A stretch of 64,000 nt of DNA from Paludibacteraceae bacterium (GCA_017456885.1 JAFTIM010000004.1:188851-252850), one strand, 5' to 3'; shown: positions 5,612 to 10,318, counted from the first letter of the stretch. Program-made: numbers and translations. Notes: generated by a model not told the origin, from the letters alone.

Positions 5612-5650
5612 AAAAAAAAGAGGTCGATGAATTTCGACCTCTTTATTTTT
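5612..5650. terminator. Bidirectional terminator between groEL and the convergent MFS gene
   Basis: 11-bp stem (5617-5627 with 5634-5644), loop TGAATT, A-run on the left and T-run on the right. Confidence 0.7.
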
Positions 5651-6890
5651 TACCGAAATCGTTGTCTATTTTCAGAAATTTAAGCAACAAAAATCCGGGT
5701 ATCGTGCAAAGACAGACCCATATAAAAAACGGTGCATATCCCCAAGCCTCCTGAAGTTGTCCTGCAAACATACCGGGCAACATCATTCCAAGAGCCATAA
5801 TGCCCGTTCCAATAGCATAATGTGCTGTTTGGAATTCGCCTTTCGACATAAAAATCAAATACAGCGTAAAGGCAGTAAAACCGAAACCATAACCAAATTG
5901 TTCGAAAGCCACTCCCGATGCAATCAGCCACAACGACTGCGGTTGTGCGTATGCAAAATAAACATACACCAAGTTAGGGAGATTCATCATCAATGCCATT
6001 GGCAATAACCACGTTTTAAGTCCGTTTCGTGCAACTACAACTCCTCCCAAAATGCCACCTGCAAGCAATGCTACCACACCTATCGTACCCTTTATAAATC
6101 CCACACTTTCGGTCGAAAGACCTAATCCCCCGACTTCTGTTGGATCCAGTAAAAAAGGAGCGGCAATCTTCGCCAATTGTGCTTCTCCAAAACGATAAAG
6201 AAGTAAAAACAAAAAAGAGACAATGATATTTTTCTTTTTAAAGAAGCTAACAAACAATTTACCAATGTTTTGAAGCGAATGTTGCTCATCAATTTTGGGT
6301 TTCGGAAGTAAGAAATAATGATGCACAAATAGTGCAAGAAACACACCTGCCGAGAGCATAAATGTCAAACTCCAAGCATAAACGGCACTATTTATTTTTG
6401 TAGATAAATATCCCGCCAACATCACCAACAAGCCCTCACCTGTAACCGTAGCAATGCGGTAAAAGGTATTACGAATGCCCACAAACAGCGACTGCTCGTT
6501 CTCTTTCAGTGCCAGCATATAAAAACCGTCGGCAGCAATATCGTGTGTGGCCGAACTGAAAGCCAACAGCCAAAAAAAAGCCAACGTAGTCTGAAAAAAA
6601 TAATTGGTAGGAATAGTAAATGCTATTCCTGCCAATCCAACACCAATAAGCAATTGCATCGTGCATACCCACCAACGCTTTGTCTTTAGCAAATCTACAA
6701 AAGGGCTCCAAAACGGCTTAATAACCCATGGCAAATAAAGCCAACTTGTATAAAATGCAATATCGCTATTGGCAATACCCAAGTTTTTGTACATAATAAC
6801 CGAAACAGTCATTACCAAAACATAGGGCAAGCCTTCTGCAAAATAAAGTGTTGGCACCCATGCCCACGATGAATTACTTTTTTTATTCAC
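5643..6890 (-). CDS. MFS transporter, AmpG-like family
   Basis: 415 aa and multi-TM. N-terminus SWAWVPTLYFAEGLPYV...LPWVIKPFWSPFVD is typical of AmpG-type MFS permeases. It starts 11 nt after the trpB2 stop. Confidence 0.75.
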   Translation of the reverse strand: MNKKSNSSWAWVPTLYFAEGLPYVLVMTVSVIMYKNLGIANSDIAFYTSWLYLPWVIKPFWSPFVDLLKTKRWWVCTMQLLIGVGLAGIAFTIPTNYFFQTTLAFFWLLAFSSATHDIAADGFYMLALKENEQSLFVGIRNTFYRIATVTGEGLLVMLAGYLSTKINSAVYAWSLTFMLSAGVFLALFVHHYFLLPKPKIDEQHSLQNIGKLFVSFFKKKNIIVSFLFLLLYRFGEAQLAKIAAPFLLDPTEVGGLGLSTESVGFIKGTIGVVALLAGGILGGVVVARNGLKTWLLPMALMMNLPNLVYVYFAYAQPQSLWLIASGVAFEQFGYGFGFTAFTLYLIFMSKGEFQTAHYAIGTGIMALGMMLPGMFAGQLQEAWGYAPFFIWVCLCTIPGFLLLKFLKIDNDFGKK

Positions 6891-6901
6891 AATTCGATTC
6901 T

Positions 6902-8284
6902 TTAGAAATTAACTTTAGGCAACTCCGCCAAAGATTTTTTTATATCCTCGTCGGTTGGAATATAATCGTTCATGACGCCATCATTAAATTTCTGATATGC
7001 TACCAAATCGAAATATCCGGTTCCGGTAAGACCAAACACGATGTTCTTTTCTTCGCCTGTTTCTTTACATTTCAAGGCTTCGTCGAGTGCGACCTTAATT
7101 GCATGCGAGCTTTCGGGAGCAGGCAAAATGCCTTCGACACGTGCAAAAGTTTCAGCCGCTTTAAACACTTCGGTTTGCTCTACGCTTCGTGCTTGTATCA
7201 ATCCTTGATCATAAAGTTCGGAAACAATCGAGCTCATACCATGATAACGAAGACCTCCCGCATGATTGGCCGATGGGATAAAACTGCTACCCAAAGTGTA
7301 CATTTTGGCAAGTGGGCAAACTTTTCCCGTATCACAAAAATCGTATGCATAACTACCTCTTGTAAGACTTGGACAAGAAGCAGGTTCTACCGCAATAATC
7401 TGATAGTTGGCCTCCCCTCTCAACATCTCTCCTACAAACGGAGATATAAGACCTCCGAGATTAGATCCGCCACCTGCACAACCGATAAGCACATCGGCTT
7501 TGATTCCGTATTTGTCAAGTGCAGTTTTTGTCTCTAATCCGATTATGGACTGATGAAGCAACACTTGAGCCAATACGGAACCCAACACATAGCGATAACC
7601 CTCTTGTGTAGTCGCAGCTTCTACCGCTTCCGATATTGCACATCCAAGGCTTCCGGTAGTACCGGGGAATTCCTCGTTGATTTTTCTTCCGATATTCGTA
7701 TTCATCGATGGCGATGGGGTTACCTTTGCTCCGTATGTACGCATTACCTCTCGGCGAAATGGTTTTTGCTCATAAGAACATTTCACCATATACACCTGAC
7801 AATCCATATCGAAGTACGAACATGCCATCGAGAGTGCGGTACCCCATTGTCCGGCTCCCGTTTCGGTAGTAACACCTTTTAATCCTTGCTTTTTAGCGTA
7901 ATACGCCTGTGCAATTGCCGAATTCAACTTATGACTTCCCGAAGTGTTATTACCTTCAAATTTGTAATAAATATGGGCCGGAGTTCCCAACTTTTTTTCC
8001 AAGCAATAGGCTCTCACAAGAGGAGATGGGCGATACATTTTATAGAAAGTACGAATCTCTTCAGGAATATCGAAGAATGGCGTCGTATCGTCTAACTCTT
8101 GCTTTACCAACTCTTCACAAAAAACATGTGATAACTCTTCAGCCGTAATCGGCTTCAACGTGCCGGGGTTTAAGATTGGTGCCGGTTTTTTCTTCATATC
8201 GGCACGTACATTATACCATTGTTTCGGCATTTCGTTCTCCTCCAAATAAATTTTGTAAGGAATTTCTTTCATTTCTTCTTTCAT
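6902..8284 (-). CDS. trpB: TrpB-like PLP-dependent enzyme (tryptophan synthase beta, long TrpB2 type)
   Basis: 460 aa. It has a PLP-lysine context (NTSGSHKLNSA), a GAGQWG phosphate loop and a GGGSN motif. There are no adjacent trp genes. Confidence 0.9.
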   Translation of the reverse strand: MKEEMKEIPYKIYLEENEMPKQWYNVRADMKKKPAPILNPGTLKPITAEELSHVFCEELVKQELDDTTPFFDIPEEIRTFYKMYRPSPLVRAYCLEKKLGTPAHIYYKFEGNNTSGSHKLNSAIAQAYYAKKQGLKGVTTETGAGQWGTALSMACSYFDMDCQVYMVKCSYEQKPFRREVMRTYGAKVTPSPSMNTNIGRKINEEFPGTTGSLGCAISEAVEAATTQEGYRYVLGSVLAQVLLHQSIIGLETKTALDKYGIKADVLIGCAGGGSNLGGLISPFVGEMLRGEANYQIIAVEPASCPSLTRGSYAYDFCDTGKVCPLAKMYTLGSSFIPSANHAGGLRYHGMSSIVSELYDQGLIQARSVEQTEVFKAAETFARVEGILPAPESSHAIKVALDEALKCKETGEEKNIVFGLTGTGYFDLVAYQKFNDGVMNDYIPTDEDIKKSLAELPKVNF

Positions 8285-8309
8285 CTCTTTTTTTATTAAA
8301 ATTATTAAA

Positions 8310-8347
8310 CAAAAAAAAAGCTATAAAGTGGTATACCTTATAGCTCT
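8310..8347 (-). terminator. Terminator hairpin in the trpB2 leader (candidate attenuator terminator)
   Basis: Minus strand AGCTATAAG-GTATACCAC-TTTATAGCT followed by T9. The T-run ends 25 nt upstream of the trpB2 ATG (8284), leaving no room for a promoter in between. Confidence 0.55.
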
Positions 8348-8382
8348 ATAAATTTTTATATAAAATGGTAATCCACCTTATG

Positions 8383-8430
8383 TTAATAAGATAAATACCA
8401 CCACCAATTATTTCTAATGTTATTCAACAT
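8383..8430 (-). CDS. Candidate Trp-rich leader peptide MLNNIRNNWWWYLSY
   Basis: ATG-initiated 15-codon ORF with three consecutive TGG codons (8398-8406), stop TAA. It lies between a TACCTTTG promoter box and the terminator hairpin upstream of trpB2. Confidence 0.55.
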   Translation of the reverse strand: MLNNIRNNWWWYLSY

Positions 8431-8454
8431 AGTCTTGTTCTTTGTTTCGATGTG

Positions 8455-8462
8455 CAAAGGTA
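8455..8462 (-). promoter_or_regulatory. Bacteroidetes -7 promoter box (TACCTTTG) for the trpB2 leader
   Basis: Exact TAnnTTTG on the minus strand, 25 nt upstream of the leader ATG. TTTG repeats lie further upstream. Confidence 0.45.
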
Positions 8463-8504
8463 AAAAACTTTTATTCAAACAAACAAACTTTTTTTGTTAT
8501 TTTT

Positions 8505-9452
8505 TTATTCCAACAATCGTTTTAACACTGTTTGTGCCGAAATCTCACGATTGGCAGCTTCAGGAATCACCAACGATTGAGGCGATTCAATCACTTCATC
8601 GGTTACGATCATATTTCTGCGAACCGGCAAGCAATGCATAAAATAAGCGTGGTTGGTCAGCAACATTTTTGCAGCATCTACGGTCCAAGATCTATCGGTA
8701 CTCAAAACTTTTCCATAATTAGGGTCGTTGTATGCCGCCCAATTTTTTGCATAAATAAAATCGGCACCCTCAAATGCTTTTTGTTGGTTATATTCAACTT
8801 TTGCTCCACGCACAAATTTTTCATCAAGTTCGTAACCTTCAGGGTGCGTAATCACAAAATCGACATCGGCCTCGTTCATAAAATCGCAAAAAGAGTTCGG
8901 AACTGCCTGTGGCAATGCCTTGGGATGAGGAGCCCAAGTCAACACAACTTTCGGGCGTTCTGTTTTTTTGTATTCTTCTATAGTTATCAAATCGGCAAAA
9001 GCCTGCAAAGGATGACCTGTTGCCGCTTCCATGCTGAAAACGGGCTTTCCTGAATATTTTATAAATTGATTCAATATTGTTTCCTCGTAATCAAATTGTT
9101 TACTCTCGAATCGTGCAAACGAGCGAACTCCAATCACATCGCAATAGCACCCCATCACGGGAATTGCCTCCAAGAGATGTTCCGGTTTATCTCCGTCCAT
9201 AATTACGCCTCGCTCCGTTTCCAACTTCCATGCTCCCTGATTCACATCAAGCACGATTGTATTCATTCCCAAGTTCATGCCTGCTTTTTGAGTACTCAAG
9301 CGTGTACGTAAACTCGAATTAAAAAACACCATTAAAAGCGTTTTATTTTCGCCAATGTGTTTAAACGCATATCTGTTTTTCTTTATTTCGAGAGCCTCTT
9401 TTACAGCATCTTTCAGATTTCCAAGATCTGTTACATTTGTATATTTTTTCAT
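8505..9452 (-). CDS. argF: N-succinyl/N-acetyl-ornithine carbamoyltransferase (Bacteroidetes argF' type)
   Basis: SLRTR carbamoyl-phosphate motif, HPLQ, HCLP. Start chosen at MKKYTNV (9452), which overlaps the lgt stop as ATGA. The longer ORF to 9506 overlaps lgt. Confidence 0.88.
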   Translation of the reverse strand: MKKYTNVTDLGNLKDAVKEALEIKKNRYAFKHIGENKTLLMVFFNSSLRTRLSTQKAGMNLGMNTIVLDVNQGAWKLETERGVIMDGDKPEHLLEAIPVMGCYCDVIGVRSFARFESKQFDYEETILNQFIKYSGKPVFSMEAATGHPLQAFADLITIEEYKKTERPKVVLTWAPHPKALPQAVPNSFCDFMNEADVDFVITHPEGYELDEKFVRGAKVEYNQQKAFEGADFIYAKNWAAYNDPNYGKVLSTDRSWTVDAAKMLLTNHAYFMHCLPVRRNMIVTDEVIESPQSLVIPEAANREISAQTVLKRLLE

Positions 9453-10318
9453 TTTAAAAGCGTATGTTTTTTTACAAAAGCATTGATTATCAAATAAATT
9501 CCCCATATTATAAAGGGTAAACTAAGCCATTGCCCCATATTAAGCAGTAAAGAAGATTCAAAGGCTTCTTGGTCGTTTTTAATAAATTCAAGGACAAAAC
9601 GAGTACCGAATATTCCTATCCAAAAAATGCCCAACAGCAACCCTTCTCGTTTCCCTGCATTATACTTCCAATACAAAAGAGCGCAAACCGCAAATGTTAC
9701 CAAACAATATATCATCTCATAAATCTGCGTCGGATGACAAGCCTGCCCCTTATACAACATTTGCCACTCGTAGGAGCGAACAAACATAAAGCCCCAAGGC
9801 AATGTGGTAGGAAAGCCGAATATTTCGGAGTTCATCAGATTACCGAAACGAATACATGCGCCACAAAGGGCAACTCCTATAATCAGACGATCCAACAACC
9901 AAACAAAACCTCGTTTCAGCCATTTTCGATTGTACAACCAAACCGCTATCAATATACCGATAGCACCTCCATGACTTGCCAATCCGCCTTCCCATATCGC
10001 TATCAAACGCCAAGGTTTAAGCAGGTATTCATTGCCATACTTAAAAGTGATACCCAAAAAATTGACAGGCTCTTCAAGCAAATGCCACTCGTAGAAAAAA
10101 CAATGTCCCAAACGAGAACCGATTATGGCTCCCAAAAGTACATAGATGAACAATTTATCAAGCAAAGGTTCCGCTATTTGCTCTCTTTTGTAAACCTTGC
10201 CCATGATAAAAAGCACAAGCAAAATGCCCAATGCCCACATTACTCCGTACCAACGTACCGAAAGCGGACCAAGCGAAAAACAAACGGGATCGACATCCCA
10301 AACGACATACTGCAACAT
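9449..10318 (-). CDS. lgt: Prolipoprotein diacylglyceryl transferase
   Basis: 289 aa membrane protein with RWYGVMWALG, GGLASHGGAIG and HPTQIYE motifs typical of Lgt. Confidence 0.9.
   Translation of the reverse strand: MLQYVVWDVDPVCFSLGPLSVRWYGVMWALGILLVLFIMGKVYKREQIAEPLLDKLFIYVLLGAIIGSRLGHCFFYEWHLLEEPVNFLGITFKYGNEYLLKPWRLIAIWEGGLASHGGAIGILIAVWLYNRKWLKRGFVWLLDRLIIGVALCGACIRFGNLMNSEIFGFPTTLPWGFMFVRSYEWQMLYKGQACHPTQIYEMIYCLVTFAVCALLYWKYNAGKREGLLLGIFWIGIFGTRFVLEFIKNDQEAFESSLLLNMGQWLSLPFIIWGIYLIINAFVKKHTLLK

Follow-up and report, generated by a model that had tools for sequence, protein, structure and literature searches.

The 64,000-nucleotide stretch of DNA analyzed here (the window; Paludibacteraceae bacterium, GCA_017456885.1 JAFTIM010000004.1:188851-252850) carries a stand-alone trpB2 gene, which encodes a TrpB-like pyridoxal phosphate (PLP) enzyme, and in front of it a leader that holds a promoter box, a short open reading frame (ORF) with a run of tryptophan codons, and a terminator hairpin. 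The gene 5' of the leader (8505-9506) encodes an N-acetyl/succinyl-ornithine carbamoyltransferase-like protein, and a permease gene of the major facilitator superfamily (MFS) lies downstream of trpB2. Coordinates are window positions throughout, and the leader elements and trpB2 are all on the minus strand. A first-pass annotation, made from the sequence alone, had read the leader as a tryptophan attenuator of the classical trpL kind. Our results make it very probable that the leader acts as a ribosome-mediated transcription attenuator, senses charged tRNA-Trp, and controls trpB2 and, probably, the MFS gene. The leader is a genuine, sub-threshold relative of the cataloged Bacteroid-trp leader and so belongs to a kind of element already known in the phylum.

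Organization of the trpB2 leader

The regulated gene is what the first-pass annotation took it for, as its product matches NF009057 with 675 bits (cutoff, 366) and TIGR01415 with 585 bits, and the canonical trpB family, TIGR00263, with only 153 bits. The -7 box at 8462-8455, the ATG-initiated ORF of 15 codons with TGG three times at 8406-8398 and its stop at 8385-8383, and the hairpin with nine U residues upstream of trpB2 are likewise present as that annotation had described them. The arms of this hairpin are GAGCUAUAAGGU and ACUUUAUAGCUU (8346-8318), its stability is -12.5 to -13.2 kcal/mol, and it was found independently by a terminator scan (13 pairs; one site versus 0.5 expected in shuffles), so that an intrinsic terminator with a 12- to 13-bp stem and U9 stands between the leader ORF and trpB2. 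The gap from the end of the U run to the trpB2 ATG at 8284 is short, as had been claimed, but measures 26 nt rather than 25 nt; the intervening sequence is A/U rich. Compared with dinucleotide shuffles, the 166-nt leader folds with a z score of -4.0.

The core of segment 2, AUAAGGUGG, has three alternative partners. It can pair with segment 1, forming a 1:2 hairpin of -13.4 kcal/mol that holds the leader stop codon in its loop and has counterparts of the same kind in the folds of relatives; with the local sequence at 8368-8360, forming a hairpin of -7.0 kcal/mol; and with the terminator loop and 3' arm, forming the antiterminator. The first-pass annotation missed the first two hairpins and saw the third pairing correctly: AUAAGGUGG (8381-8373) and CCACUUUAU (8331-8323) form 9 bp with one G-U pair and a duplex energy of -10.9 kcal/mol. 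Bases overlapping 8360-8368 are used again inside the antiterminator, in two further helices (UACC 8370-8367 with GGUA 8337-8334, and 8365-8359 with 8350-8344), and the bases of the antiterminator 3' strand belong, in the terminator, to the apical 5' arm, the loop, and the proximal 3' arm. We also observed that GUGGUAU at the end of the Trp-codon run (8395-8401, minus strand) is perfectly complementary to AUACCAC in the terminator loop (8328-8334), and segment 2 (GGUGGAU) therefore looks like a near copy of the Trp-codon run.

Table 1. Features of the trpB2 leader and of the proposed transcription unit, in window coordinates
Feature	Coordinates	Strand	Description
Candidate -33 element, TTTG	8484..8487	-	21 nt 5' of the -7 box; read from sequence and presumed from the spacing of the Bacteroides promoter consensus
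-7 promoter box, TACCTTTG	8455..8462	-	Consensus TAnnTTTG; present in sequence
Leader ORF, MLNNIRNNWWWYLSY	8383..8430	-	15 codons including 3 Trp; ATG 8430-8428, TAA 8385-8383
Three adjacent Trp codons, UGG UGG UGG	8398..8406	-	Proposed sensing codons
Segment 1	8386..8401	-	5' strand of 1:2 hairpin; end of Trp run plus codons Y-L-S-Y
Segment 2	8365..8381	-	Core AUAAGGUGG at 8381-8373
CCAUUUUAU	8360..8368	-	Pairs with segment 2 in the competing local hairpin, -7.0 kcal/mol
Antiterminator 3' strand	8323..8337	-	GGUA 8337-8334 plus CCACUUUAU 8331-8323
Intrinsic terminator	8311..8346	-	12-bp stem 8346-8335 with 8329-8318, loop AUACC, U9 8319-8311
trpB2, 460 aa	6902..8284	-	TrpB-like PLP enzyme, Bacillota-type clade; regulated gene
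MFS permease gene, AmpG/BT1-like	5643..6890	-	TIGR00901 185 bits (cutoff, 350); PF03092, PF07690
Bidirectional terminator	5617..5644	-	11-bp stem, 5 G-C pairs; ends the proposed trpB2-MFS unit

Occurrence and conservation of the leader

A leader of this kind might be fortuitous, the hairpin with its U9 being simply the terminator of the carbamoyltransferase-like gene, and trpB2 having an unrecognized promoter of its own. Taken by itself, the -7 box carries no significance (76 copies of TANNTTTG in the window, with 67 expected), and a scan for sigma-70-type promoters found none, a result that is uninformative either way for this phylum. Both of these points leave room for such a reading, but the remaining evidence makes it extremely unlikely. 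Counted over both strands, the 1.92-Mb genome has 28 copies of the motif TGGTGGTGG, of which only the leader copy lies outside long ORFs; all the others are inside long ORFs and in another frame. Only the 26 A/U-rich nucleotides between the U run and the ATG would be left to such a promoter; two covariance models match the leader over their full length (see below); and the W-rich ORF, the box position, the 1:2 hairpin, and the antiterminator are kept in dozens of leaders that follow varied upstream genes. Moreover, six independent public assemblies agree in every base of the 220-nt leader, and it is therefore not an assembly artifact. In the set of 28 related leaders that we used for comparison, 11 of them before trpB2 and 17 before a trp operon, a NNNNTTTG box begins 20 to 37 nt 5' of the leader ATG in 26 or 27 cases.

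Conservation of the W-rich mini-ORF, one of the checks that the first-pass annotation had proposed, was borne out. At least 15 related Bacteroidales genomes, including G001, G002, G004, G007, G010, G012, G013, G017, G025, G032, G035, and G040, have an ATG-initiated W-rich leader ORF followed by a terminator 5' of trpB2, and these ORFs, like the one analyzed here with its 3 Trp in 15 codons, carry WW(W) or W-x-W (the G001 peptide is MLYNKNNWWWHLSY). The leaders occur with a native TrpB2 clade as well as with an acquired one, and the genes 5' of them differ among loci. In Bacillota/Spirochaete-type trpB2 loci, no W-rich leader was found (0 of 80).

What the leader peptides of relatives have in common is the WW(W) run and, frequently, an Asn-rich stretch preceding it; otherwise they diverge widely. 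This divergence bears on the idea that the same attenuator has an added role in trans, its terminated leader RNA of about 130 nt or its 15-residue peptide acting elsewhere in the cell. There is precedent in rnTrpL and peTrpL of Sinorhizobium meliloti (PMC7298713, PMC7968998), which is the only kind of support that we can cite, and the leader would be expected to be abundant whenever Trp is sufficient. Since the peptides are so poorly conserved, and since the cis arrangement accounts for all conserved features, we consider such a role very unlikely here; no target was found, and none was searched for.

A predicted ribosome-dependent antiterminator

The 28 leaders share a common layout, in which segment 1, made up of the Trp codons and the next few codons, pairs with a purine-rich segment 2 and the 1:2 loop holds the leader stop codon or lies close to it. 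Segment 2 begins 15 to 20 nt past the last Trp codon and complements the loop and proximal 3' arm of its own terminator. The sequences that do so vary: operon-type leaders pair (U/C)CGUGAG with CUCACG(A/G), the window leader pairs AAGGUGG with CCACUU, and other trpB2 leaders use GGAGG:CCUCC, GGGUGGAU:AUCCACCU, or GGGGUU:AACCC. In an alignment-free permutation test, cognate duplexes between segment 2 and terminator were stronger than noncognate ones, both for the 11 trpB2 leaders (p = 0.009) and for all 28 (p = 0.0009), and the window duplex, at -10.9 kcal/mol, ranks fourth.

Compensatory changes, which the first-pass annotation had suggested looking for, were found in an alignment of the 17 operon-type leaders (A1). 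The antiterminator helix comprises 7 bp that are 96.6% paired, with double changes at three of the pairs; its covariation score was matched by 0 of 500 shuffles, and the helix collapses when slid. In the terminator helix, pairing reaches 97.8% and 9 of 11 pairs show double changes, and column 165 of the alignment covaries with segment 2 and also with the terminator 5' arm.

The folding of partial transcripts depends on where the ribosome is placed. Transcripts were cut 5 nt into the terminator 3' arm, and pairing was measured as the fraction of these 5 nt and the loop that was paired with the region from the last Trp codon to the terminator. With the ribosome stalled on the last Trp codon, this fraction is 0.61 on average over the 28 leaders and 0.69 in the window leader; it falls to 0.07 (window, 0.01) with the ribosome on the stop codon and to 0.11 (window, 0.08) with no ribosome. 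Pairing is higher in the stalled state than in the stop state in 26 of 28 leaders (Wilcoxon p = 1.5e-8), and dinucleotide-shuffled linkers gave decision-point pairing of only 0.12 overall and 0.15 for the window, compared with the real 0.69. In silico, the trpL-like ribosome logic put forward in the first-pass annotation is thus reproduced. The geometry expected from the footprint of a ribosome agrees with these states: with its A site on the third Trp codon, a ribosome would cover the RNA to about 8388, hiding segment 1 and leaving segment 2 free, and on the stop codon it would cover to about 8373 (8385 minus 12), the exact end of AUAAGGUGG.

The energies indicate what kind of switch this can be. 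The full antiterminator of the window leader, with its 9 bp, UACC:GGUA, and the inner hairpin, reaches -15.2 kcal/mol, compared with -13.2 kcal/mol for the terminator and -19.8 kcal/mol for the local hairpin and terminator together. The antiterminator is the minimum free energy structure for transcripts ending at 8328 to 8323 (-8.9 to -14.7 kcal/mol) and is overtaken only after the final 3 to 5 nt of the terminator emerge. The folding comparison that had been proposed therefore has two outcomes: at the decision point, with a stalled ribosome, the antiterminator competes; in the full leader at equilibrium it does not, and the terminator wins. Because equilibrium folding gives termination in all ribosome states, the switch must be kinetic; in silico, the leader has a 1:2 hairpin and an antiterminator that excludes the terminator and depends on ribosome position without being favored at equilibrium. 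When ribosome masks were applied in equilibrium folding, 2 of the 11 trpB2 leaders (L092 and L098) flipped to the antiterminator, and the window leader did not.

Several observations weigh against a working attenuator. At equilibrium the terminator of the full window leader has P = 0.97 in every ribosome state, being 4.6 kcal/mol better, and segment 2 can be sequestered in the local hairpin (8381-8373 with 8368-8360) while the target of this segment is still untranscribed. Among relatives that have a leader, the closest is G001, whose duplex between segment 2 and terminator ranks last of the 28, at just -4.5 kcal/mol. In G003, of the same genus and with the gene at the same locus, leader, promoter, and terminator are all missing and the trpB2 ATG lies 2 nt past the upstream stop, and control is therefore dispensable; its attenuator was either cleanly deleted or never gained. 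In addition, in the literature on Trp leaders or trpB2 attenuation in Bacteroidota we found no experimental study, only the motif description by Weinberg et al. (2010) and a mention in Flavobacterium psychrophilum.

The same folding and comparative points could be taken to mean that the leader is a decaying or constitutively leaky Bacteroid-trp remnant, in which the antiterminator no longer competes and the hairpin dampens trpB2 whatever the Trp level. We think this unlikely, as the 9-bp duplex of the window leader is intact and among the strongest of the set, the partial-transcript fold switches with ribosome position, and the leader sequence is the same in all six assemblies. Moreover, the terminator of Escherichia coli trpL is likewise its more stable structure. 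A ribosome-mediated attenuator is hence the reading that we develop below.

Proposed mechanism of attenuation

We propose that transcription starts a few bases past the TACCTTTG box and that the 15-codon leader would be translated while RNA polymerase advances, transcription and translation being presumably coupled. When Trp is plentiful, the ribosome would reach the UAA codon and cover AUAAGGUGG, the terminator (8346-8318 plus U9) would form, and transcription would stop 26 nt before trpB2. If the leader were not translated at all, segment 1 would pair with segment 2 (-13.4 kcal/mol) and the terminator would form too. When charged tRNA-Trp is scarce, the ribosome would stall on UGG UGG UGG and hide segment 1, so that segment 2 would be free to capture the emerging terminator loop (CCAC) and the first bases of the 3' arm before the terminator helix closes. 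This capture, by 9 bp together with UACC:GGUA and the inner hairpin (about -15 kcal/mol), would let polymerase read into trpB2.

The rest of the genome suggests what such a switch may be for. The assembly (G000; 1.92 Mb, 95% complete, 22 contigs) holds no trpA over the family cutoff, and a tblastn search of it with the TrpA, F, C, D, G, and E proteins of G007 returned nothing except weak glutamine-amidotransferase similarity; trpA is also missing across the whole genus and in many family members. TrpB2 is the only Trp-pathway enzyme in the genome, and indole together with serine or phosphoserine would therefore be the only route to Trp. We conclude that TrpB2 here probably salvages indole. With trpE, G, D, C, F, and A absent, TrpB2 would make Trp only from indole taken up from outside, and the switch would turn on indole salvage when Trp is low. 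Among trpB2-bearing relatives, 11 of the 18 that lack trpA have a leader, compared with 5 of the 19 that carry trpA (Fisher p = 0.049, a value not corrected for phylogeny). The natural role of TrpB2 is debated, and the finding that it is the sole Trp-pathway gene and appears to be under a Trp starvation switch argues that Trp is made from environmental indole in gut and rumen Bacteroidales.

Relation to Bacteroid-trp and other leaders

The Bacteroid-trp motif (RF01692, "Bacteroidete tryptophan peptide leader RNA") was described by Weinberg et al. (2010, PMC2864571) as a short ORF with at least two UGG codons that would control, in Bacteroidetes, the genes trpB and trpE. An Rfam scan gave one relevant match in our leader, a full-length match to this family at 8330-8450(-) with 32.3 bits and an E value of 0.04 to 0.19, which is below the gathering score of 49 bits for membership and is the best RF01692 match in the whole genome. 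The AUG of MLNNIRNNWWWYLSY and UGGUGGUGG align in register with the consensus AUG...UGGuGGUGg, and the leader has the position expected of the family, in the 5' leader of a Trp synthesis gene directly upstream of trpB2. The relatives of the genome group into a single order, taken to be Bacteroidales from the promoter type. About 10 pair positions of the model are noncanonical or deleted in the window leader; the hairpin is described by the authors of the motif as only "a loosely conserved hairpin," and their alignment ends at the terminator 5' arm (PMC2864571). The original description names trpB and trpE and does not mention TrpB2 explicitly (PMC2864571, Additional file 1).

A search of 60 relatives with RF01692 placed leaders on the trpA contig, about 6 to 7 kb upstream of trpA, directly before trpB1 (~395 aa, ~30% identical to TrpB2) or trpE. 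These leaders (loci L117 to L134, relatives G006 to G057) score 35 to 54 bits; only 2 of 16 reach the 49-bit cutoff, the other 14 scoring 35 to 48.8, and a sub-threshold score is therefore normal for genuine members in this order, most of which the Rfam cutoff misses. The RF01692 model also lacks the 3' half of the terminator, in which the conserved CUCACG partner of CGUGAG lies. A covariance model (R1) made from the 17 operon leaders only, and hence free of any trpB2 leader, matches the window at 8310-8442(-) over its full length (model positions 1-152) with 31.2 bits and an E value of 3.9e-4 in 189 kb, and it also matches the leaders of 15 other trpB2 genes.

Our leader thus resembles Bacteroid-trp in its phylum, in having a short ORF with a UGG run 5' of a Trp synthesis gene, and in having a segment 15 to 20 nt past the Trp codons that pairs with the terminator loop and 3' arm. 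It differs in its target, a stand-alone TrpB2 paralogue rather than trpB1-EGDCFA or trpE, and in its antiterminator box, AAGGUGG:CCACUU in place of the (U/C)CGUGAG:CUCACG(A/G) of the family.

The leader shares with E. coli trpL the consecutive Trp codons in a leader peptide, the succession of a 1:2 anti-antiterminator, an antiterminator, and an intrinsic terminator, the three outcomes (ribosome stalled, at the stop codon, or absent), and a terminator that is more stable than the antiterminator. There is no sequence relationship, and the leader has three Trp codons rather than the two of trpL; its segment 2 takes the terminator loop and 3' arm, whereas that of trpL takes mainly the 5' arm; and it has no Shine-Dalgarno sequence and an A-rich 5' untranslated region, which is usual in Bacteroidota. 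Attenuators of actinobacterial trp leaders, which are comparative-genomic predictions, likewise have W-rich leaders, and their antiterminators and terminators have conserved complementary triples in common (Seliverstov et al. 2005, PMC1262725); three-way covariation among segment 2, the 5' arm, and the 3' arm is seen in the leaders aligned here as well. They belong to another phylum, have GC-rich helices, and are unrelated in sequence.

The Trp T-box (RF00230) is found in the same gene lineage, responds to the same tRNA-Trp charging signal, and also chooses between terminator and antiterminator, but it senses the tRNA directly and has no leader peptide. No match to RF00230 was obtained in 7800-9000 even at E values up to 10, and the core motif is absent from the leader; control by a T-box was rejected on this ground. 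TRAP-like control was rejected as well, and so was a sensor of free Trp of the TnaC type, which in front of a biosynthetic gene would act in the wrong direction.

Nothing here is new in principle. Our analysis adds a well-supported example of a switch class that has so far only been predicted in Bacteroidota, and it supplies an explicit model of 1:2 hairpin, antiterminator, and terminator, with covariation, that is missing from the published motif.

Origin of trpB2 and of its control

The trpB2 gene itself appears to be foreign. Its product is 81 to 90% identical to proteins of Lachnospiraceae and other Bacillota (about 90% to those of Lachnospiraceae) and only 52 to 56% identical to the TrpB2 of most relatives, including those of G002 and G004 in the same genus (~54%). 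In a maximum-likelihood tree, G000, G001 with G003, G013, and G026 fall at several places inside a Bacillota clade that stands apart from the native Bacteroidales clade with 100/100 support. The GC content of trpB2 (43%, versus 41% for the genome) is uninformative on transfer, and the tree was used instead; by this phylogenetic evidence, trpB2 is an acquisition from Bacillota. G000 was placed apart from G001 and G003 despite the gene being at the same locus in all three, which suggests a second allele replacement or weak resolution of the tree. A search of the same-genus genomes with native trpB2 for an empty site between the carbamoyltransferase gene and the MFS gene met a different gene order, with an HD-domain gene and priA upstream of the MFS gene, and so gave no insertion boundary.

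Donor-type loci often have T-boxes: RF00230 scores over its cutoff in 4 of the 20 scanned, and 29 of 80 have the core motif, compared with 1 of 30 Bacteroidales loci, where it is degenerate and probably a chance match. The four over the cutoff (L008, L009, L026, and L032) lie about 100 to 450 nt 5' of trpB2 (~2540-2916 within these loci). Since a T-box is present, the L032 contig, labeled "uncultured Bacteroides sp.," is probably misbinned or mislabeled.

The acquired trpB2 is here probably under the type of sensor found in the recipient. We lean slightly toward regulatory refitting after horizontal transfer, in which a gene of the type controlled by a T-box in its donors would have been given, here and independently in G013, a Bacteroidales module of promoter, W-rich leader, and terminator. 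Set beside the donor genes under T-box control, trpB2 would then be a case of a gene reconnected to the sensing device of its new host. If so, leader peptide attenuators would be small, portable modules able to be attached to genes of foreign origin, and the TrpB2 enzyme would be tied to Trp starvation, as a means of obligate indole salvage, in genomes without other Trp genes.

Neighboring genes and a second leader arrangement

The MFS gene begins 11 nt after the trpB2 stop. A terminator scan found none in this 11-nt gap; the three weak terminator-like sites that it listed are each within the MFS gene, so the MFS gene is probably cotranscribed with trpB2. The order trpB2-MFS is kept only in G001 and G003, and the MFS orthologue of G002 lies beside other genes. 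The terminator half of R1 also matches 5612-5696, around the bidirectional terminator that follows the MFS gene.

In another relative, G040, the region 5' of trpE (L132, on contig G040:C37) holds two W-rich leader ORFs in tandem, MNTNRLNNYWWWQFTYSFYREEGKLS and MNNSNLHIWWWHNSGIKP, the first with a terminator of its own, and this pair may be a tandem attenuator.

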